The translations under genes and the position numbers were made by a program. Positions 17-13,583 of a DNA stretch of 15,037 nucleotides are shown in pieces (the first letter of the stretch is position 1; every line of letters starts with the position of its first letter). The DNA lies in contig JANMKN010000228.1 of assembly GCA_031372065.1 (NCBI GenBank), positions 1 through 15,037 on the forward strand, in the 5' to 3' direction. The notes beneath the pieces were generated by a model that did no database searches, had not been told where the DNA came from, and saw only the letters and a program-made list of their open reading frames with translations. The DNA is from Abditibacteriaceae bacterium (GTDB lineage Bacteria; Armatimonadota; Abditibacteriia; Abditibacteriales; Abditibacteriaceae).

Positions 17-1072
17 TTGCATGATGACCGAAAAATCCGCATCCGCGACGAAAGGCGCTCCGATATTCACAAGGGACTCGTCTCCTTTGCTGCCGCACTC
101 ATCTGTTTGGCCGCTTTGTAATTCTTTTATTTAGGAACTCTTATTTCTTATTGTTTTGGCATGGCCGCTTTTTAAGTGGTTTAAGGCGCGTCTGCCGGAA
201 AAATTGGCCTTCGGCGTCACTTTTTTGGCGCTGTTAGCCGTATTAGCCCTTTTCTTCGGTTTGCTTTTTTATTCCGGCAAAGTCATGGCCGATGCCGCGC
301 CGCGTTATGCGGACGAGGCCGCAAAAATGTGGGGTCAAGCCCGCGAAAGCGCCGCGCGCTACGATCTGACGCTGCCGGAAAATCCGCGCCAGCTTTTGAA
401 AGGCTCCGGCGGCACATCTTTTGTCGGGCCGCTGCTTTCTATTTTGGGTTTGTGGCTACTGGTGATTGGTTTGGTTGCGCTGGGTTTGCACGAGGCGCCG
501 ACTTTTCGCGCGAAATTTCAGAAAAGGCTGATGATAAAGCCGAAAAAGGCGAGACGTTGCAGGTTTTGGATCAAATTATCGAAAAATGTGGTCGCTATTT
601 CTGGATTCGCACTGTTGTTAGCGTGATTCAGGGCATTTGTTCCAGCTTGGCGGCGCTGGCGCTGGGATTGGATTTGCCTTTTATCTGGGGACTTTCTGCG
701 GCGCTTTTAAATTATCTGCCGACGGTTGGCTCGCTGATTTCTGTTGTGCCGCCCGCTTTGTTTGCCTTGTTTCAATTTCAAGATGTAGGCCGCGCCGGAT
801 TGGTATTTTTCGTGATGTGCGCCATTCAATTGCTGCTGGGCACTTTTGTTGATCCGCTGCTTTCGGGTCGTCAATTAAAAGTTTCGGCGTTTTTAGTGTT
901 GTTCTCAATTGCCTTTTGGGGTTGGGTGTGGGGCATCGCCGGGGCGCTTATCGGGGTGCCTTTGACGGTCACTTTGTTGATTGTTTGTTCGCATTTCGAG
1001 GAAACGAAATGGATTGCCGATTTATTTGCGGGCGCTGACGAACAAGGCGAAGCATCAGAGGCCCCAAAATAA
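17..1072 (+). pseudogene. AI-2E family (PerM/TqsA-like) transporter, disrupted by an internal stop and frameshifts
   Basis: The C-terminal ORF has AI-2E motifs (LLNYLPTVGSLIS, LVLFSIAFWGWVWGIAGALIGVPLT). The middle TM region (LFLIVLAWPLFKWFK...APTFRAKFQK) is in a different frame. The first TM (GLVSFAAALICLAAL) ends at TAA 119-121. The start could be TTG17 or ATG21. Confidence 0.85.
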
Positions 1073-1205
1073 TTTTGCGACGCATTGGCGGGCGTTTTCG
1101 ATAAGATTATTGTCACGGCGCGCCTTGGAAATCGACAAAATCGAACTTTCGCGCGGCGTGACATCTTCCAACATTTCGAGTGTTTCTCAAGGGAGTTTTT
1201 TCAGC

Positions 1206-4200
1206 ATGAGGGTTAGTCAAAAAGGGTTATTCAGTCAGTCCGTTTTTTCGGCAGCGATGCCCACTATCGCTGCCGTTCTTGTTGTTTTGAGCGCGGTTTT
1301 GTGTTTTAGCAGTCCTGTTATGGCGCAGACAAAACCTGATACGCAAACGCCGCGCGTGGCGCGAGCCGAAGCCCGCGCCATGATTAGCCAATTGGTGCGC
1401 GAGGGCAAAATCATGCGGCCCGGCGATGCCAAGCGCGGAATGCGTGGTATCGGGCGCAGCGTGTTTCAAGGCACGAAAATCGAAGAATTTCATATCGAAG
1501 TCATCGGCACTCTCAAAAAAGTGATGGGCGGCGGCGACCTCGTGCTGATTAAAGTGCTGGATGGCCCGGTTGTCAAGCGTAATACGGGAATTATTGCCGG
1601 CATGAGCGGTAGCCCGGTTTATATTAACGGCAAAATGCTGGGCGCCATCGCCATCGGTTTTGGCTTTCCCAAAGAACCGATTGGCGGCGTGACGCCGATT
1701 ACACAAATGATCGAAGGCGCTTTGCCGGATAACACCGAAACTAAACCAACTGTTAAAAACAGCATCGAAAAACGTGCCGCACTCCAAAGCGAAACCTATC
1801 GCACCGGGGCGCCGATTGCAATTGGTGGACAGCGCATTTCGCAGGTTGTCGTTTCGCGCAATCACAGTCAGGAAATGGTGCCCGGCACATTGGTCGGGCG
1901 GCCTTGCACAATGCTGATGCAAATGGCCGGCTTTTCGCCCGCATCGCTGCCGCGCTTGAAAAAAATGATGGAGCCATTTGGCATTGAGCCAGTGCTGGGC
2001 ACTGGCGGCGTGATGTCGAGTTCTGCGTCGCCGGTGCAAGCGTTTTCGGCTGCCAATGAAAAAACCGATGTCAACCCGCCTTTTATACCCGGCGGCGCTA
2101 TCGGCGTGCCGCTGGTGACGGGCGACTTAGATATGTCGGGCGTCGGCACCATTACGTTTCGTTGGGGCAAGCGCATTTTGGCTTTTGGTCATCCGATGTT
2201 CGGCAAAGGCGCCGTTTCGATGCCGATGACCAGCGCGTATATTCACGATATTTTTCCGAGCTACCAGCAATCGTTTAAATTGGCTTCGCCAGTGCGCGAA
2301 GTGGGCGCTTTGCAGCAGGATACCGAGTTTGCCATTGGCGGCACCATCGGGCGGCGCGCCGATATGGTGCCGATGCACGTTCACTTGAAAAATGCCGAGC
2401 GCGATATTGATCGCAGTTACAATGTGCGCCTCATCAAAGACCCGGTTTTCACGCCGATGTTGTTACAAATGGTCAGTTCCGAAGCGCTGGGCGGCGCTTT
2501 TGGCATGGACTCCGACAAAATGGTGCGCGTGAAATTTCGCATGGAAATGCAAGACCTGCCGACCATCGAAAAAGAAGAATTTCTCTATGCGCAAAGCGAT
2601 GTGATGATGCCCGCGCTCGGCGATATGTTCGAGACGATTATGCTCACGCAGATGAATCCATTTTCGCGTGGCGATATCAAGCGCGTGGACTTGGATGTGT
2701 CGCTGGAGCCAAAGCGTCGCACGGCCATAATTAAAAGCATCGAAGCGGATCGCAACCGTGCCAAGGCTGGCGATAATGTGCGCGTTAATGTCTTATTGGA
2801 GCCGCACGACACACCGGGGCAATACATTACGCGCGTTTTTAATTTCAAAGTGCCCGACGATTCGCCGGACGGCGCCTTGCGCATCACTGTGAATCCGGCC
2901 AGCGATTACTGGCAAGGCCAGTCGCGCGTTGGCGGTGCGCCGCCCGATCCCGATAATCTTAAAGAACTGGTGGAAGCCTACCAAAAAGCGGGCGCTTCCA
3001 ACGAAATCTTGGTGCAAGCCTCAACGCCGCAAGCGTATTTAATGGTCGGACGCCAAAAAGTGGCAAACCCGCCGTCATCATGGGCACGCCTCATGCCTTC
3101 GCGCGCTTCGACAAATATCGCGGCCTACAACGAAACGCAAATCCAACGCGATAAAGTGGGATTTTCACTGACGGGCGCACAGTATCTTTCGATTCCTATT
3201 GAAAGTGCCCGTCACAGCGACCGCGAACGCCCCGACACCGGCACTACCGCCGATGGCAAAGCGGGCGCGGCCTCCTCGGCGGCTTTGGCCGCTGCAATGG
3301 CTGCCGAAGAAGCCAGTGCTGATAGCGGTTTTGACCCTTCTGATTACGAAACCGACGAACTGGCATTGATGCGCTTGCCCTTTGCGCGGCAGATGCAAAT
3401 TAGTCCGTTGGTTGGCCCCGATATGCAACTTTGGTGGAATCGCCTGTCTGCCTCTTACAAAGTGCCGTTGCAGTCAGGCGCCACGCCGCCCGCAGCAGCA
3501 GAAGCGATTACGCCTTCGATAACACCTTCGATTTCGCCCGTGAAGACTCCCGCCTCCAGTGCTGAGAAAGTCACCGACACGGTGGTGGCCACTGCTGAAC
3601 CCGATACTAATTTGGCCCGCCCTGTTTCACGTTGGATTCAAGACGATGCCAAAGATTTTTCGCGAGGCACCTTTGAAGGCACTGCAACTTCCTCCGACGG
3701 CATGATTCGCCCGGCGCCGCACGCCGAACTTTTGGCGACGACCACGCAACCTGTCGGATGGAGCATCGCCGCTGATCGCAACGGTTACACCTATATGGGT
3801 TCGGGCCACAAAGCGCAGATTTATCGCATTGATGCCAAGGGCAAAACGACGCTGCTGTATGACGGCCCTGAAGTCGCTGTCACGGCTCTGAACACCGACG
3901 AAGCGGGCAATCTTTACGCGGGCGTAACGCCCGGCGCCAAGGTGTTGCGTTTTAGCAAAGAAGGTTTTGTAACCACGATTTTTGATGGCGAGGAAACCTT
4001 CGTTTGGGCGCTGGAACGCGACGCCCAGGGGCGCCTTTTAATCGCGACGGGTGGCGGCGAAAAAACTGTCGGTGGCGCGATTTATCGCTTGGATGACGCT
4101 GCCACGCGCACCGAGCCAAAAGCCAGCGTGCCGCTGGCTCGCGTGCCGCAACGTCATGTGCGCTCTTTAGCCGTGCGCGGCAGCGACATTTTCGCGGGCA

Positions 4201-6005
4201 CTGGAGATGAAGATGCAGTTTTGTATCAAGTTTCGGGCGAAACCGGCGCTTTGAAAGCGCTGTATGAAGCGGGTGTCGGCGCGGCTCCCTCGGCTGGCTA
4301 TGGCGGCTATGACCCCAACCTTGCCGCGATGATGATGAATAATGCCTCGCGCGCCATGATGGGCGGCGGCGCGGGCCGACCCATGATGGGTGCCGATGCC
4401 ATGATGCTGATGGCCGGTGCTTCCGGCGTGCCGATGATGAGTGGTGCCGGTTTGCAAGCGCAGGGCACTGAAATTTTGGCTATCGCGGCGATGCCGGATG
4501 GCATTTATTTTGGCACAGCTAATAGCGGCACTATTTATCGCTGGACGCCTGAACGTGGCGCGATTCCGGTTTATGCCGCGCCCGCTCGCGCTGTTTATGC
4601 ATTGCGGGCACAAAACGGCAAACTGTTCGCGGCAGTAGCCGGCAGTTCAGGGGCGGCGGCACAGGCCGCTCAAATCAGCGCTGCAATGACTGCTGGCACA
4701 AGCGCGATTCAGCCGATTTCTTTGCCAGCCAGCAATGGCGCGCATGGCGCGGTTTATGAAATTGATTTGGTCGCTGCCGGTGACAACGCCGACAACACGC
4801 GCGCCGTGCGTTTGGTTGAAACCACGCAGCCTCAAGTCTTGGCGATTGCCCTGTCGCCGGGCGGCGATTTACTGGCCGCGACGGGAAACAATGCGGCGGT
4901 TTATCGCGTGCCTTTGGCGGCGCAAGGCGGCGGCACTTACACTTCGAATGTGCTGGACGCTGGGCGTTTAGTGCGTTGGGGCGCGCTTCGTTCTCTCAGC
5001 AAAAATGCGCCGCTGGAAACGCGGAGCGGCAACACTTTGGAGCCGGATGCCACATGGAGCGATTGGCAAAGCGCGACGAAAACCGAAACCGGCGAAGCGC
5101 GTGTCGCTTCGCCGCCTGCGCGCTATCTGCAATATCGCGCGAAGTTGGCATCCGATGGCTCACTTTCGCGTGTCGAAGCGATTTATCGCCCGCAAAATCA
5201 GGCGCCGGCAGTGCAATTTGCCTCGCCTGTCGGCGGCGAATTTTTGAAGGCCAAGAAGAAGTTGACTTGGAAGGGCAAAGACCCCGACAGCGATACGCTG
5301 CGTTATCGTTTGTGGCTCTCGCGCGATAGCGGCGCGTGGCAACCTGTCGAATTAAAGAAAAATTCGGCTGCGAGTTATGCCATTGAAGCCGATAAATGGC
5401 CGGATGGCTCATATCGCGCCAAAGTCGAAGCCTCAGATCGTGAGCGCAATCCAGAAGACCCGCGTTTGGCAGAGATGACTTCTTCGCCCTTTACCATTGA
5501 CAACACCGCGCCCAAATTGGACGGCCAAACTGTGCAAAAGCAAGAGGGTGCGTGGCGTGTGCGTGCCCTCGCCAGCGACGAACTTTCGCCTATCATCGGC
5601 GCCGAATGGCGTGTTTTCGTGCCTGAAGCAGAAAAGAAGGACGAAAAAGCCCAAAAAGAGGACACCAAAGACAAAGCCAACGCCAAAGACGCAAAAGCAG
5701 ACGCTAAAAGCGGCAAGATCGACGAAAAGACTGATGCTATTGCTATCCTTGATGAGTCATCAGATGACGCCGATGGCGATGCCGACATGGGCGATCTGAC
5801 AGATGCCAAGAAAGATGAAGCGGAATGGCACGCCTTGGCCGCAAGCGACGGCATTTTCGATGCGCGCCGCGAAGAAGTTATTGCTTCGATTGAAAAAATG
5901 GCCGCGCAAGGCAAGATTCCCGAAATCAAATCCGGCACCGTCATCGAAATCCGTGTGCGCGACGCCGCTGGCAATAGCACAACCGTGCAAGTCACGCTGT
6001 CGTAA
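1206..6005 (+). CDS. Large exported protein: SpoIVB-like peptidase S55 region + low-complexity linker + beta-propeller repeats + Ig/Fn3-like C-terminus
   Basis: GIIAGMSGSPVYINGKMLGA (from 1587) and GVGTITF...AFGHP (2181-2195) match SpoIVB motifs. There is a hydrophobic signal peptide ending VMA-Q. Propeller-like blades include WSIAADRNGYTYMG, TALNTDEAGNLYAG and WALERDAQGRLLIA. The C-terminus reads RVRDAAGNSTT. AGGGAG at 1190-1195 favours ATG1206 over the track's 981 start. Confidence 0.85.
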   Translation: MRVSQKGLFSQSVFSAAMPTIAAVLVVLSAVLCFSSPVMAQTKPDTQTPRVARAEARAMISQLVREGKIMRPGDAKRGMRGIGRSVFQGTKIEEFHIEVIGTLKKVMGGGDLVLIKVLDGPVVKRNTGIIAGMSGSPVYINGKMLGAIAIGFGFPKEPIGGVTPITQMIEGALPDNTETKPTVKNSIEKRAALQSETYRTGAPIAIGGQRISQVVVSRNHSQEMVPGTLVGRPCTMLMQMAGFSPASLPRLKKMMEPFGIEPVLGTGGVMSSSASPVQAFSAANEKTDVNPPFIPGGAIGVPLVTGDLDMSGVGTITFRWGKRILAFGHPMFGKGAVSMPMTSAYIHDIFPSYQQSFKLASPVREVGALQQDTEFAIGGTIGRRADMVPMHVHLKNAERDIDRSYNVRLIKDPVFTPMLLQMVSSEALGGAFGMDSDKMVRVKFRMEMQDLPTIEKEEFLYAQSDVMMPALGDMFETIMLTQMNPFSRGDIKRVDLDVSLEPKRRTAIIKSIEADRNRAKAGDNVRVNVLLEPHDTPGQYITRVFNFKVPDDSPDGALRITVNPASDYWQGQSRVGGAPPDPDNLKELVEAYQKAGASNEILVQASTPQAYLMVGRQKVANPPSSWARLMPSRASTNIAAYNETQIQRDKVGFSLTGAQYLSIPIESARHSDRERPDTGTTADGKAGAASSAALAAAMAAEEASADSGFDPSDYETDELALMRLPFARQMQISPLVGPDMQLWWNRLSASYKVPLQSGATPPAAAEAITPSITPSISPVKTPASSAEKVTDTVVATAEPDTNLARPVSRWIQDDAKDFSRGTFEGTATSSDGMIRPAPHAELLATTTQPVGWSIAADRNGYTYMGSGHKAQIYRIDAKGKTTLLYDGPEVAVTALNTDEAGNLYAGVTPGAKVLRFSKEGFVTTIFDGEETFVWALERDAQGRLLIATGGGEKTVGGAIYRLDDAATRTEPKASVPLARVPQRHVRSLAVRGSDIFAGTGDEDAVLYQVSGETGALKALYEAGVGAAPSAGYGGYDPNLAAMMMNNASRAMMGGGAGRPMMGADAMMLMAGASGVPMMSGAGLQAQGTEILAIAAMPDGIYFGTANSGTIYRWTPERGAIPVYAAPARAVYALRAQNGKLFAAVAGSSGAAAQAAQISAAMTAGTSAIQPISLPASNGAHGAVYEIDLVAAGDNADNTRAVRLVETTQPQVLAIALSPGGDLLAATGNNAAVYRVPLAAQGGGTYTSNVLDAGRLVRWGALRSLSKNAPLETRSGNTLEPDATWSDWQSATKTETGEARVASPPARYLQYRAKLASDGSLSRVEAIYRPQNQAPAVQFASPVGGEFLKAKKKLTWKGKDPDSDTLRYRLWLSRDSGAWQPVELKKNSAASYAIEADKWPDGSYRAKVEASDRERNPEDPRLAEMTSSPFTIDNTAPKLDGQTVQKQEGAWRVRALASDELSPIIGAEWRVFVPEAEKKDEKAQKEDTKDKANAKDAKADAKSGKIDEKTDAIAILDESSDDADGDADMGDLTDAKKDEAEWHALAASDGIFDARREEVIASIEKMAAQGKIPEIKSGTVIEIRVRDAAGNSTTVQVTLS

Positions 6006-10463: not shown

Positions 10464-10579
10464 AATGTTTTTTCAAATGCGGTGACAACAGTGGGGAGAA
10501 TTGGCTTACGCTCAGAGTTTATAAAAGAGTGACACAATAGGGGCACAGGGCATGGCTAAGTGCGGTATTGTCGTTTGAC

Positions 10580-10608
10580 GTGACATATTCGCGAGTGTCT
10601 GGTTTAAT
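10580..10608 (+). promoter_or_regulatory. Possible sigma70 promoter for the anti-TRAP-like gene
   Basis: GTGACA (10580-10585), a 17-bp spacer, then TTTAAT (10603-10608) preceded by TGn. The -10 lacks the conserved A at position 2. Confidence 0.35.
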
Positions 10609-10666
10609 ACCTTACTGTAGTCCGCGCCTTTGTGGCGTGCAACGCTTTTACGACGAGGGAATGAAA

Positions 10667-10882
10667 ATGGAACTAAAGTTAGAAGATTTGATGATTGATT
10701 GCGATGTCTGCCAAGGGACTGGAAAAGTTCGGAATCCTAAAGTTGGTAAAGTTCCTAATCAAATTGGACCTGAAACAGTGGAGTGTGAGAAATGTAAGGG
10801 CAAAGGTGTCCTTCTAACCGAAAGCGGAAAGACTTTGCTTCGGTTTATTCAACAGGCAAAAGCAAAGTCTCTCCCATATTAG
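10667..10882 (+). CDS. Anti-TRAP (RtpA)-like small zinc-finger protein, 71 aa
   Basis: MELKLEDLMIDCDVCQGTG...CEKCKGKGVLLTESGKTLLRFIQQ has two CxxCxGxG motifs, an N-terminal xxDL segment and the LTxxGxTLLxFIQ helix characteristic of Bacillus anti-TRAP (sequence recalled from memory). GAGGGA at 10655-10660 fits ATG10667. ATG10661 is an alternative start. Confidence 0.75.
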   Translation: MELKLEDLMIDCDVCQGTGKVRNPKVGKVPNQIGPETVECEKCKGKGVLLTESGKTLLRFIQQAKAKSLPY

Positions 10883-10900
10883 TCATTTGGGAAAACGGAT

Positions 10901-11554
10901 TCAGGCTTTTTTGGCGCTCCTGCCACTTGTTTTGGAGATTCGCGTTTGACCTGTTTTTGTTGTTTTCTTAGGCGGAGAAGGCTGCGTTCCAATTTTTGCT
11001 AATTTTGCATTAGCGGCTCTTGTTCGCTGCGCTTTCAATTGTCTGGACACTTTGATTAAGGTATCCAGTTTGTCCTGATAAGAAGCCGCGCTCATTGGAC
11101 TTTGGTTTATTTCTATTCCTACATCCTGAACAAATTGGTGTATATCTCCGGCTTTCTCACAGCTTAAAGCATTGTATTGTTTTAGAGGGTCTCGTATTAT
11201 GCTTCCAGTGGCACCAACAGCGAGAATCGGAAAAATTCTATTTTTGGCTCCAACCGAACTTGCATACATTCCATAGTCCTGAGTTGCGCCCCACCGTGCA
11301 CCGAGCTCAAAAAGCACATAAGCAGAATCCAAACTTATTTCGCTGAGAATGCCAATAAAAACGCGAGCTTGTTGGACTTCGCTACGCAACTCCCTTTCCG
11401 TGTCAGCGCCAGTCTTAAGTTTGTAACCGGCCACACTTGTGCAGCGAATTCTGTTTGGTTCAATGTGAAAGGCGTCACGCAGAAGATCAATTAAAGCTTT
11501 AGCAACTTTTTCATCGGCGCTACTGTGGCTAATAAAAATATCAATTTGACTCAT
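10901..11554 (-). CDS. Stand-alone TIR domain protein with Lys/Arg-rich C-terminal tail
   Basis: DIFISHSSAD (box 1), VFIGILSEISLDSAYVLFELGARW (Glu at the catalytic position of TIR NADases) and IFPIL are present. Confidence 0.9.
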   Translation of the reverse strand: MSQIDIFISHSSADEKVAKALIDLLRDAFHIEPNRIRCTSVAGYKLKTGADTERELRSEVQQARVFIGILSEISLDSAYVLFELGARWGATQDYGMYASSVGAKNRIFPILAVGATGSIIRDPLKQYNALSCEKAGDIHQFVQDVGIEINQSPMSAASYQDKLDTLIKVSRQLKAQRTRAANAKLAKIGTQPSPPKKTTKTGQTRISKTSGRSAKKA

Positions 11555-11555
11555 G

Positions 11556-11581
11556 TTTCATCACTCAATTTCATCACTCAA
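11556..11581. repeat. Perfect 13-bp tandem duplication (TTTCATCACTCAA x2)
   Basis: Copies at 11556-11568 and 11569-11581, immediately upstream of the TIR start codon. Confidence 0.9.
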
Positions 11582-11591
11582 ACTCATAGAG

Positions 11592-11620
11592 ATTATACTA
11601 TTCAATCTTAAATGAAACAA
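11592..11620 (-). promoter_or_regulatory. Sigma70-type promoter of the TIR gene
   Basis: Minus strand TTGTTT (11620-11615), a 17-bp spacer, then a perfect TATAAT (11597-11592). Confidence 0.65.
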
Positions 11621-11652
11621 AAAACGAACGGTTCGCACGAATCCAACCAAAC

Positions 11653-11686
11653 CGCGCCCTTTTCATCTTTCAATGAAAAGGGCGCG
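11653..11686 (-). terminator. Hairpin, probable terminator of the helical+Fn3 gene
   Basis: Perfect 14-bp stem CGCGCCCTTTTCAT / ATGAAAAGGGCGCG with a 6-nt loop, 24 bp past the stop. The U-tract is weak (GTTTGGTT). Confidence 0.7.
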
Positions 11687-11710
11687 TTTAGGTTTGGGGC
11701 CACCGTTTGA

Positions 11711-12631
11711 TTACGTCACTTCGATTGTGGCGACGGGCGAGTGGGGGCCGCTGCCGACTTGGTTGACGCCGCAATAGGTGATTTCGTAGGCGCCGGGCGC
11801 GAGGCCGGTGAGCGTGGTTTGGTCTAAAACGCGGTTGGTGACGCGGGGGGCGGGTTCGGGGCTGCCCGCGAGACGTGCGAAGACGAAACAGGCATCGGCG
11901 CGTCGGGATAATTCCAGATTCGTCACGCGCGCCGTGCCGCCACCTAAGACTTCGACTGTCGGCGCGGTGGCGGGCGATTCGGGTGTTTCGGGGTCGGCGG
12001 GGCGGCTCAGATCGAAATTCCACCAGCGCGTGTCGTCCTCGCCCAATTCTTCGTCGAGTTCGTCCACCAAGCCGATAAACGCCTTGCGTGCCGCTTTGTA
12101 GGCGTCGTCGCGGTTGTCTTTGGCAGTTTGCCTCACTCCGGCGGCGCTGTTGACGGCTTCTAAAACGTCGTTCCACTCGTCTATCAGCGTGTTGGCCCGC
12201 GCCACGGTCAAGCCTTTGCCCGCGTTGACCAACGCGGCGTTTTCCGCCAGCACAATGGGAATGCGCTCAAGGATAGTGATGCGGTCTTGGGCTTGGCGTG
12301 GGATTTCCGTGGAGTTGTCGGGAAAGCCCGCCAACTGATAAATCGCATGATAACCGTTGCCCAGTTCATAAACGATGGCGCTCTTGAAAGTCTTGATGAA
12401 AGCCTCAATTTCATCGTCTTTCTTGGAGCGGTCATTTTCGCGGTCATGCCACGCGATTTCGGCCTGATCATAGGCGTATTCGGTGTCAAATAGGTTTTGT
12501 TTCGCCGAATTAAGGCGCGTGGCGGCGTGTTTGAGATTGAGCGTTGCACCATGCAGTGCGGCTCCGATAGCGGCTTTGCCAAGCGCCTGTTGCAATTTGT
12601 TGGAATCTTCGGGTGCAGGATTGCCTGCCAT
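11711..12631 (-). CDS. Uncharacterised 306-aa protein: helical N-terminal region, Pro-rich linker, C-terminal fibronectin type III-like domain
   Basis: Strong AAGGAGA RBS (12643-12637). Amphipathic helical segments lead to RWWNFDLSRP and PADPETPESPATAP. The end has an Fn3 signature, LTGLAPGAYEITYCGVNQVGSGPHS. No signal peptide is visible. Confidence 0.8.
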   Translation of the reverse strand: MAGNPAPEDSNKLQQALGKAAIGAALHGATLNLKHAATRLNSAKQNLFDTEYAYDQAEIAWHDRENDRSKKDDEIEAFIKTFKSAIVYELGNGYHAIYQLAGFPDNSTEIPRQAQDRITILERIPIVLAENAALVNAGKGLTVARANTLIDEWNDVLEAVNSAAGVRQTAKDNRDDAYKAARKAFIGLVDELDEELGEDDTRWWNFDLSRPADPETPESPATAPTVEVLGGGTARVTNLELSRRADACFVFARLAGSPEPAPRVTNRVLDQTTLTGLAPGAYEITYCGVNQVGSGPHSPVATIEVT

Positions 12632-12680
12632 GATTTTCTCCTTCGGTATTTTGCTAAAAGAGCAGTCGGTAAGGCTAAAA

Positions 12681-12823
12681 AGCAGGTCGGAAGCCTCGCG
12701 TGAGTCCCACGCGAGGCTCTGGAGCAGGTCGGAAGCCTTGCGTGAGACTCACCTGAGGCTTCCTAGCACGTCGGCAGCCTCAGGTGAGACTCACGCGAGC
12801 CTTTCCAGCACGTCGGCAGCCTC
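12681..12823. repeat. 42-bp tandem array (3 full units + 1 partial) of internally palindromic units
   Basis: U1 at 12681: AGCAGGTCGGAAGCCTCGCGTGAGTCCCACGCGAGGCTCTGG. U2 at 12723: AGCAGGTCGGAAGCCTTGCGTGAGACTCACCTGAGGCTTCCT. U3 at 12765: AGCACGTCGGCAGCCTCAGGTGAGACTCACGCGAGCCTTTCC. U4 at 12807: AGCACGTCGGCAGCCTC. Confidence 0.95.
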
Positions 12824-12922
12824 AAAAAGGACGAAAATGCCGCTTTGGAGCCGATTTGGGCCTTTTCAGAGGCGTTTTTCGCTGCTGTTGGGCTAAAGTG
12901 AGATCAAAGTGGCCCAAATTCC

Positions 12923-12952
12923 AATGTAGCAAATCTCAAATGGGTTGGGCAA
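12923..12952 (-). promoter_or_regulatory. Putative extended -10 promoter upstream of the repeat array and Fn3 gene
   Basis: Minus strand TTGCCC (12952-12947), an 18-bp spacer ending in TGn, then TACATT (12928-12923). Confidence 0.5.
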
Positions 12953-12959
12953 GGGCAGA

Positions 12960-13021
12960 GTAGGGGGCACGCTACGGGGTGCCCCAACGAATAAAAAGGG
13001 CACGCCGTAGCGTGCCCTTAC
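12960..13021. repeat. Inverted pair of GTAG-type REP-like palindromes; the second probably also terminates the VOC gene
   Basis: Plus copy: GTAGGGGGCACGCTACGGGGTGCCCCAAC (12960-12988). Minus copy: GTAAGGGCACGCTACGGCGTGCCC followed by TTTTTATT (from 13021). Confidence 0.7.
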
Positions 13022-13024
13022 CAA

Positions 13025-13525
13025 TTAACCATCATACGCCTGTTTGATGGCGGCGATGTCGATCTTCTTCATTTGCATCATGGCTTTCATGGAGCGCTGC
13101 GATTTTTCGGAGTGCGGGTCGCCGGTGAGTTCCAAGAGTTCTTCGGGGAAAACCTGCCACGACAAGCCGTATTTATCTTTGAGCCAGCCGCATTGCTGTG
13201 CGTTTTCATCGCCGCCTGCCGACAACTTTTCCCAATAATAATCGGCTTCTTCCTGCGTCGCACAGCGCACTTGAAACGAAATCGCTTCGCTGAATTTGAA
13301 CGCTGGGCCACCGTTCAGGGCGGTGAATGTCTGACCTTCGATTTCAAAGTCCACCGTCATCACTTGACCTTCTGGCTGACCGTGAATCTCGAAACCTTCT
13401 TTGCCATAGTGCGTGATGCGCCCCAGCTTGGAATTCTTGAAAATCGAAGTGTAAAAGCGGGCTGCTTCTTCGGCTTGACCATCGAACCACAAACAAGTGG
13501 CGAGTTTTTGCGTGTTGATTGACAT
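13025..13525 (-). CDS. VOC family protein (PhnB / 3-demethylubiquinone-9 3-methyltransferase-like)
   Basis: CLWFDGQAEEAARFY, ALNGGPAFKFSEAISF, CGWLKDKYGLSWQV and MKAMMQMKKIDI are present. AAGGAGA at 13537-13531 supports ATG13525. Confidence 0.93.
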   Translation of the reverse strand: MSINTQKLATCLWFDGQAEEAARFYTSIFKNSKLGRITHYGKEGFEIHGQPEGQVMTVDFEIEGQTFTALNGGPAFKFSEAISFQVRCATQEEADYYWEKLSAGGDENAQQCGWLKDKYGLSWQVFPEELLELTGDPHSEKSQRSMKAMMQMKKIDIAAIKQAYDG

Positions 13526-13583
13526 TGTGTTCTCCTTGCCTTCCGTAAAGCGCAAAGCCGATGCCCGATTGGTGCTGATTATG

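Follow-up and report, generated by a model that had tools for sequence, protein, structure and literature searches.

Upstream of an uncharacterised gene in an Abditibacteriaceae bacterium (assembly GCA_031372065.1) lies a palindromic tandem array with a period of 42 bp, which raises the question of whether array and gene form a system and, if so, whether the array acts as RNA or as DNA. An earlier note, made from the sequence alone, had suggested either a structured non-coding leader or a phased DNA-binding platform working with the adjacent protein, in a class that could not be named. Here we present a computational analysis of the window (the whole stretch of 15,037 nucleotides), of its source genome (G000) and of related loci elsewhere.

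The tandem array and its surroundings

Autocorrelation, which gives the looser boundary, places the non-coding array at 12668-12833 (no strand assigned), and TRF run on the window returned a core at 12681-12823 with a period of 42 bp, 3.4 copies, 81% matches and a score of 167. The palindromic units are arranged head-to-tail and are 76-81% identical over their whole length. Identity at a lag of 42 reaches 0.79, a level that 1000 shuffles never approached beyond 0.50, and the top lags are 42, 11 and 31, the fundamental period being 42. TRF, autocorrelation and shuffling thus all bear out the array as it had been described from the letters. The same is true of the reported stops, which occur within the array in all three minus-strand frames; on the plus strand one frame is open across it (137-aa ORF, 12483-12896). 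A coding repeat or leader peptide is ruled out by the stops in all three sense frames together with the family periods of 41 and 20, which do not fit a reading frame. The 289-nt gap between 12632 and 12920 folds with a z of -5.06, a value equalled by none of 200 shuffles. Rfam gave no family at gathering score for the array, and a known RNA family was dropped as its identity since all matches were sub-threshold hairpins. The array has one solo copy in the genome, 78% identical (G000:C351:34660-34870); the two also have a flank in common (12834-12893, no strand assigned), and the shared stretch stops short of the ribosome-binding motif.

The promoter proposed at 12952-12923 was missed in a consensus scan, but in a model trained on 599 upstream regions of the source genome it is the top upstream match, a weak candidate sigma-70-type promoter with an extended -10 (12923-12952, minus strand; score 8.0, p 0.05-0.07). 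A competing site in the interval from array to gene reaches 6.7 (p 0.03-0.07). As to the hairpins said to flank the unit on both sides, the one 3' of the gene (11645-11694, minus strand; hairpin 11653-11686) is terminator-like and single-copy, whereas those on the 5' side are an inverted pair of REP-like hairpins (12960-13021, no strand assigned) that lie outside the unit and belong to a dispersed repeat not specific to it. This repeat has 14 matches at ≤ 4 mismatches and also ends the upstream gene, of which the pair is likely the terminator. By a loose pattern 43 such elements occur genome-wide, and three of them interrupt the spacer of a truncated paralogue (G000:C98). An association of REP-like repeats with arrays as a rule was rejected because cases are too few: the repeat lies ≤ 300 bp from 6 of 57 linked and 2 of 227 solo arrays.

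The partner protein

The gene (11711-12631, minus strand) specifies a soluble protein of 306 aa composed of two helical modules of ~105 aa and a C-terminal fibronectin type III (Fn3) domain, and its start codon is preceded at a distance of 6 nt by a ribosome-binding motif recognised from the sequence (12638-12643, minus strand). Module 1 (12320-12622, minus strand; residues 4-104) has a short helix followed by a 54-residue helix (37-90). Module 2 (11996-12316, minus strand; residues 106-212), with a long helix at 143-195, is its homolog: hhalign gave a probability of 96% for residues 1-105 against 106-212. The Fn3 domain (11714-11992, minus strand; residues 214-306) matched with a Z of 12.5 and an rmsd of 2.1 over 89 aligned residues. 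An AlphaFold2 model built from 101 sequences (pLDDT 97) has helices at 10-31, 37-90, 114-130 and 143-195, then a beta sandwich. The gene with its ribosome-binding motif and the helical-plus-Fn3 layout had both been read correctly.

The protein matches no family in Pfam, NCBIfam, PADLOC or PHROGs, and NCBIfam has none for 100 of the 101 aligned members of its family. Fold searches with the whole protein returned Fn3 matches only. Neither an RHH nor an HTH domain was matched in Pfam or NCBIfam, in keeping with a model made of two long-helix modules and Fn3; no Nop domain was matched in Pfam at E ≤ 1, the whole-protein fold searches being filled by Fn3; and there was no match to Y1_Tnp. No membrane or signal-like stretch, known DNA-binding domain or evident catalytic motif was found. 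Its net charge of -15 makes the protein acidic (family median -6), but conserved basic columns of the family are grouped where the two long helices end (83, 117, 171-184, 202). In a profile search 702 representatives reached E ≤ 0.001; of 150 listed, the majority are close to 305 aa long. Atlas look-alikes of a stored homolog fell into unnamed clusters in which Verrucomicrobiota were most frequent. A resemblance of the partner proteins to DUF6261/HagB was not retained: Pfam gave no match to it in 19 partner representatives, for which the one match over cut-off was to fn3.

Many homologs carry an N-terminal extension of 28-59 residues with repeated aromatic-Asp/Gly motifs that ends in a basic stretch (P0011, P0014, P0016, P0017, P0020, P0028, P0029, P0047, P0080, P0094, P0099, P0100, P0103, P0106, P0114, P0117 and P0153; locus L046:2405-2500). 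The basic stretch is followed at once by an inner Met that corresponds to the start of the core. By pattern, 15 of 155 homologs have the extension, and it is also in frame in L046. The extension, missing at this locus, possibly reflects two start sites or a targeting tag.

Genomic context

The unit lies in an accessory block (10464-13583, no strand assigned) made up of an anti-TRAP-like gene, a TIR gene, the array-gene unit and a glyoxalase-like gene; it has been inserted where a GH39 gene meets a GH51 gene. The latter two are separated by 16 bp in G002 and adjacent in G001, and a related contig (run X4) is joined across the site. The 3.1-kb block with the unit is missing in two congeners and one related contig, the site being a chromosomal sugar operon, and the unit is a recent solitary insertion. 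Paralogs of the 306-aa gene each stand alone among unrelated genes: 17 of their neighbours were scanned and are mostly housekeeping or sugar genes with no family in common. The paralogs at C151, C159 and C9 have as nearby genes a methylase, a STAND NTPase and a CHAT-TPR gene, respectively. As the earlier note had stated for the window, no Cas, Nop, RT or transposase family was found among the 10 proteins scanned.

Within the block, the lone TIR-domain gene (10901-11554, minus strand) comes immediately downstream of the unit, in a patch of low GC, and has SpbK as its best PADLOC match (E 6e-15). An exact 13-bp duplication (11556-11581) stands immediately upstream of its start codon. The anti-TRAP-like zinc-finger gene (10568-10882, plus strand; Pfam PF15777 over cut-off) is convergent with it. 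Elsewhere in the window, 981-6005 (plus strand) encodes a 1,600-aa protein with a SpoIVB/S55 peptidase domain and a long beta-rich unannotated region.

Linkage of array and gene

Family loci were collected by sequence search before any look at their flanks, and 12 were found in the source genome. All 10 with full upstream DNA have an array, with identities of 0.68-0.95 at a lag of 41/42 and background values (0.34-0.45) at lags of 20-22; an eleventh has a partial 42-bp array cut by the contig end and the twelfth has no upstream DNA. The distance from array to start codon is 37-92 bp in eight of the 10, some with a promoter-like site on one side. Outside the source genome, 41-bp arrays precede homologs in G001, G029 and a Verrucomicrobia MAG (L046), that is, in three of five testable cases; the Verrucomicrobia homologs L048 and L050 have no array in 2.2 kb upstream, and six further loci were set aside because their upstream DNA was too short. 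In total 14 of the 16 family members that could be tested have a 41/42-bp array; for other genes the figure is 27 of 425. Collecting homologs and scanning their flanks, the check that had been suggested, thus revealed recurrent linkage. That homologs might lack arrays was true of L048 and L050 only, an array being present at 11/11 paralogs of the source genome and at 3/5 loci elsewhere. Array and gene are a recurring unit.

The family was found in three of 301 genomes of a phylum sample, the source genome included, and its 12 loci there compare with 1, 0 and 0 found in three congeners. With the queries used, searches of phages, viral contigs and a set of 72,556 plasmids (the last with one paralog as query) gave no relatives. 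One metagenome scan was without a match and another gave two loci with too little upstream DNA. In a class-level relative (G029:C521 and G029:C435; L036, L041, L043) two homologs are split over two frames and represent broken genes or assembly errors.

The full family arrays mostly differ in sequence between loci, one close pair excepted. Proteins 87-91% identical may have arrays with 4-8% of their 8-mers in common, so that whatever reads the arrays must tolerate sequence drift and strict sequence reading is hard to reconcile with the data. Array similarity does drop with protein distance; strict co-evolution of protein and array was not retained, this drop being indistinguishable from linkage.

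Periods and protein families

TRF periods over the 6.1-Mb source genome peak at 21, 42, 63 and 41. After merging, 300 arrays of at least 80 bp were counted, 284 of them outside long ORFs; they fall into 146 sequence kinds, 77 of which are multi-copy. Sixty precede genes of 17 uncharacterised groups and ~240 have no recognised partner gene, but these groups were seeded by eye from array-adjacent genes (58 seeds), which biases the rate of linkage, and partners of some solos may have gone unrecognised.

Among 272 classed non-coding arrays the period is 21 in 190, 20 in 13, 22 in three, 42 in 37 and 41 in 29, which corresponds to a mean pitch of 10.5 (20-22 class) and 10.4 (41-42 class) bp per turn; that of B-DNA is 10.4-10.5. 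The period follows the gene group: three other groups have 42 only, and most groups have 21. A family with one module plus Fn3, homologous to the two-module family (module 81%, Fn3 98%), has 21-bp arrays at six of six loci in the source genome and in G004. Period goes with the protein family, 21 bp in one-module relatives and 41/42 bp in two-module proteins, with one exception at C190 (198 aa, one module, 42-bp array). Groups of 230-325 aa with 21-bp arrays, whose kinship to the two-module family is not established, fall outside this rule. Perfect stems of at least 6 bp are present in 58% of 66 42-bp units versus 8% after shuffling, and in 10% versus 2% for 21-bp units. In congener G002 (79% complete), the one in which genome-level co-occurrence was sampled, neither family was found and 400 kb contained 0 arrays versus ~20 expected from the density in the source genome.

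Solo arrays and their spread

By a hand count, 39 of the 77 multi-copy kinds include a gene-linked copy, and when a linked array is compared with another copy the similarity ends before the start codon in 69 of 86 pairs. With gene calls from our own crude predictor, solos are enriched in convergent gaps (36/161 vs 197/1834, p 5e-5), depleted in divergent gaps (21/161 vs 420/1834, p 0.003) and, in tandem gaps, closer to the upstream stop in 74 of 104 cases. Their scarcity between divergent genes excludes them as operators of a regulon. The note had held that a repeat scattered irrespective of the gene would speak against a system. This is partly the case, most arrays having no recognised partner and the array at this locus having its one solo copy.

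Array ends are ragged among the copies in the two sets that were aligned. An empty site for a solo copy was sought and none found, the neighbours being rearranged in congeners. No RVT_1 was found in the 94%-complete genome, and spread of arrays driven by a reverse transcriptase was dropped on that ground, although such a result is not proof of absence. Seven Y1_Tnp matches occur in the source genome, none at the unit. The array kind at G000:C365:670-1020 has spread recently, with copies of up to 96% identity on C16, C19, C28, C53, C208, C304, C320 and C326; these carry a strong promoter plus the array and end ahead of the ribosome-binding motif, which makes this the best locus for seeking the copying mechanism. 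At G000:C298:15758-16179 (L052) the array is followed only by the last third of the partner gene and its end, and an internal deletion of this type may be the origin of some solos. Inner segments are seemingly flipped in place in the arrays of C151, C159 and C365; the count of in-place inversions showed no excess over an off-grid control.

Promoter position and folding

The side on which the promoter lies varies among members. In the family it is between array and gene at C219 (score 11.3), in G001 (11.9, p 0.003) and at L046 (11.9, p 0.01), and upstream of the array at C365 (14.4). Among 21-bp units promoters with p ≤ 0.05 lie between array and gene in 20 of 46 and upstream in six of 46; among 42-bp units they lie upstream in six of 18 and between array and gene in two of 18. 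A promoter on either side of the array would point to operator-like behaviour rather than an obligate leader, and so favours a DNA-binding lattice over an RNA leader. Eighteen 42-bp arrays showed no preference for sense over antisense folding (p 0.47); in the 21-bp arrays the sense strand has a slight advantage in folding (p 0.02, from related arrays that are not independent). Between the two readings of the earlier note, then, the phased DNA platform is favoured by periods that match the DNA pitch, by folding without strand preference and by a best promoter between array and gene in three members. The structured leader is disfavoured and owes its remaining plausibility at this locus to a best promoter that lies upstream of the array. 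A sigma-54 enhancer array was rejected: by a -24/-12 consensus the motif occurs in one of 64 spacers and 0 of 64 upstream flanks, in a genome with a match to the sigma-54 gene.

Comparison with known systems

REP/REPIN sequences with their RAYT have one master copy linked to the gene of a Y1/HUH transposase and, near the 3' ends of genes, many palindromic copies without it. The present arrays likewise combine a gene-linked copy with many gene-free palindromic copies near gene ends; they differ in that the partner is no Y1/HUH transposase, the repeats form a phased tandem lattice and the true REP-like repeats are separate (12960-13021).

Several published systems share part of this arrangement. 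The closest in its working appears, by analogy, to be the omega-parS arrays of plasmid pSM19035, in which, according to the part of the source consulted, 7-bp heptads of fixed consensus and mixed (also flipped) orientation are bound by omega, a RHH ParB with a ParA partner (PMC9499535). Common to both are contiguous, variously oriented repeats that lie close to or at the partner gene's promoter, with more copies elsewhere; here, however, there are 41/42-bp units of free sequence, a protein of long helices plus Fn3, and hundreds of arrays on a chromosome (PMC9499535, same part). A partner NTPase and plasmid location are absent in our case, which has no common neighbour family and lies in a chromosomal sugar operon. 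BrickBuilt, a minisatellite/MITE of Porphyromonas gingivalis, consists in the portion of its description available to us of 23-nt repeats, 19 copies of one sequence family and inverted-repeat ends (PMC4596501). It resembles our arrays as a multi-copy, intergenic, spacer-less tandem repeat near two helical turns, and has a leader, a tail and promoter activity; in contrast, ours comprise 146 sequence kinds with ragged ends and a family-specific partner gene, none being named for BrickBuilt in that portion (PMC4596501). The MITE feature of an intergenic, non-coding, multi-copy tandem repeat is present here (284/300 outside long ORFs, 77/146 kinds multi-copy).

TIGR-Tas has 36-nt units with 9-nt spacers, box C/D motifs and a Nop-domain protein (PMC12045711, in part), and VIPR has 5-nt GGY/NN units (10.64898/2026.10.21.760802, in part). 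As far as these partial sources go, both share with our unit a tandem array that adjoins one small protein gene and is little conserved in sequence between loci (PMC12045711, 10.64898/2026.10.21.760802). The present array differs from TIGR in having homogeneous 41/42-bp units without unique spacers and no 36-nt alternation of repeat and 9-nt spacer (PMC12045711, in part), and from VIPR in its fundamental period of 42, with no 5-nt GGY/NN period (10.64898/2026.10.21.760802, in part). Unlike CRISPR-Cas, it has no unique spacers between units, and none of the 10 proteins scanned in the window matched a Cas family. In the part seen of a 2026 survey devoted to periodic clusters between genes, the periods named are 60-79, 18, 5, 10, 8 and 7, and 21 and 42 are not among them; its supplements or database may hold a 21/42-bp class (10.64898/2026.10.21.760802). 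The full-text literature searched, subscription journals lying outside it, contained no description of such an array-plus-protein system. The claim that no known class can be named for the unit thus holds against TIGR, VIPR and CRISPR arrays and that literature.

Proposed explanation and alternatives

The explanation that we prefer, and to which we give about an even chance, is that the 42-bp units of the array make up a non-coding lattice of DNA, likely coated by the adjacent protein, that the unit represses itself, that solos are occupied too and that the module is selfish. The two-module helical-Fn3 protein would tile the array cooperatively as double-stranded DNA, one protein per four helical turns, reading spacing and shape more than sequence. 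Coating would repress the protein's own promoter, stray array copies would offer it further docking sites, and the module would persist as a selfish, chromosome-decorating element. We infer DNA binding, shape reading, autorepression and selfish persistence from the linkage, the family-specific period at the DNA pitch, the variable promoter side, the strand-neutral folding, the apparent flips in three arrays, the conserved basic columns and the lack of both arrays and families in G002. Against this stand an acidic protein with no known DNA-binding domain, L048 and L050 with no arrays, the dissimilar arrays of closely similar proteins, the exception at C190, the upstream position of the best promoter at the locus, the lean of the 42-bp class to upstream promoters and the better sense-strand folding of 21-bp arrays. 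A bolder version, tentative and on the whole doubtful, envisages a non-catalytic superfamily of helical rods in which the number of modules, not the sequence, would set the lattice step (one for two turns, two for four) and each gene would seed its array chromosome-wide, giving ~150 orthogonal satellite-like scaffolds that spread selfishly.

Were the array instead transcribed, its structured RNA, as a leader or as processed 42-nt hairpins, might be bound or tiled by the protein as Tas or Vipr act with array RNAs. The upstream position of the best promoter at the locus, the palindromic 42-bp units (58% vs 8% in shuffles), the locus fold (z -5) and the C365 solo copies, which consist of promoter plus array and end before the ribosome-binding motif, would suit such an RNA, but three family members and many 21-bp units have the promoter downstream of the array, the 42-bp class folds equally in sense and antisense and has no unique spacers, the period is that of the DNA pitch and no Rfam family reached gathering score; we consider this explanation unlikely. 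Arrays could also be fast-changing decoys or tripwires for invader proteins, with the helical-Fn3 protein as guard or responder. The massive lineage-specific expansion (12 loci vs 1, 0 and 0 found in three congeners), the faster divergence of arrays than of proteins, the block shared with the SpbK-like TIR gene and the methylase, STAND NTPase and CHAT-TPR gene near C151, C159 and C9 are compatible with a conflict device, which nonetheless seems to us quite improbable: most of the 17 paralog neighbours are housekeeping or sugar genes of no common family, nine partner proteins scanned had no PADLOC match, there is no effector domain, and no relatives turned up in phages, plasmids or viral contigs with the queries used. 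We put equally little weight on the idea of minisatellites that some nucleoid or regulatory protein of the host reads, or that perpetuate themselves through slippage and hairpin-driven inversion, the gene only co-travelling with them. It would accommodate the ~240 of 300 arrays with no recognised partner, solos that are enriched in convergent and depleted in divergent gaps as tolerated insertions would be, the acidity of the protein and the two homologs with no arrays. It fails to explain why the period tracks the adjacent protein family, why 39 of 77 multi-copy kinds include a gene-linked copy and why the sampled congener lacks both arrays and families.

Significance

If the lattice explanation is true, bacteria would have in these units an equivalent of satellite DNA, served by binding proteins of its own, that conserves geometry and leaves the sequence free. 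A single genome offers ~60 natural array-protein pairs and ~240 solo sites for testing specificity, the one- or two-module ruler and the route of spread, and small orthogonal DNA-coating proteins, if that is what they are, would be usable as scaffolds or repressors.
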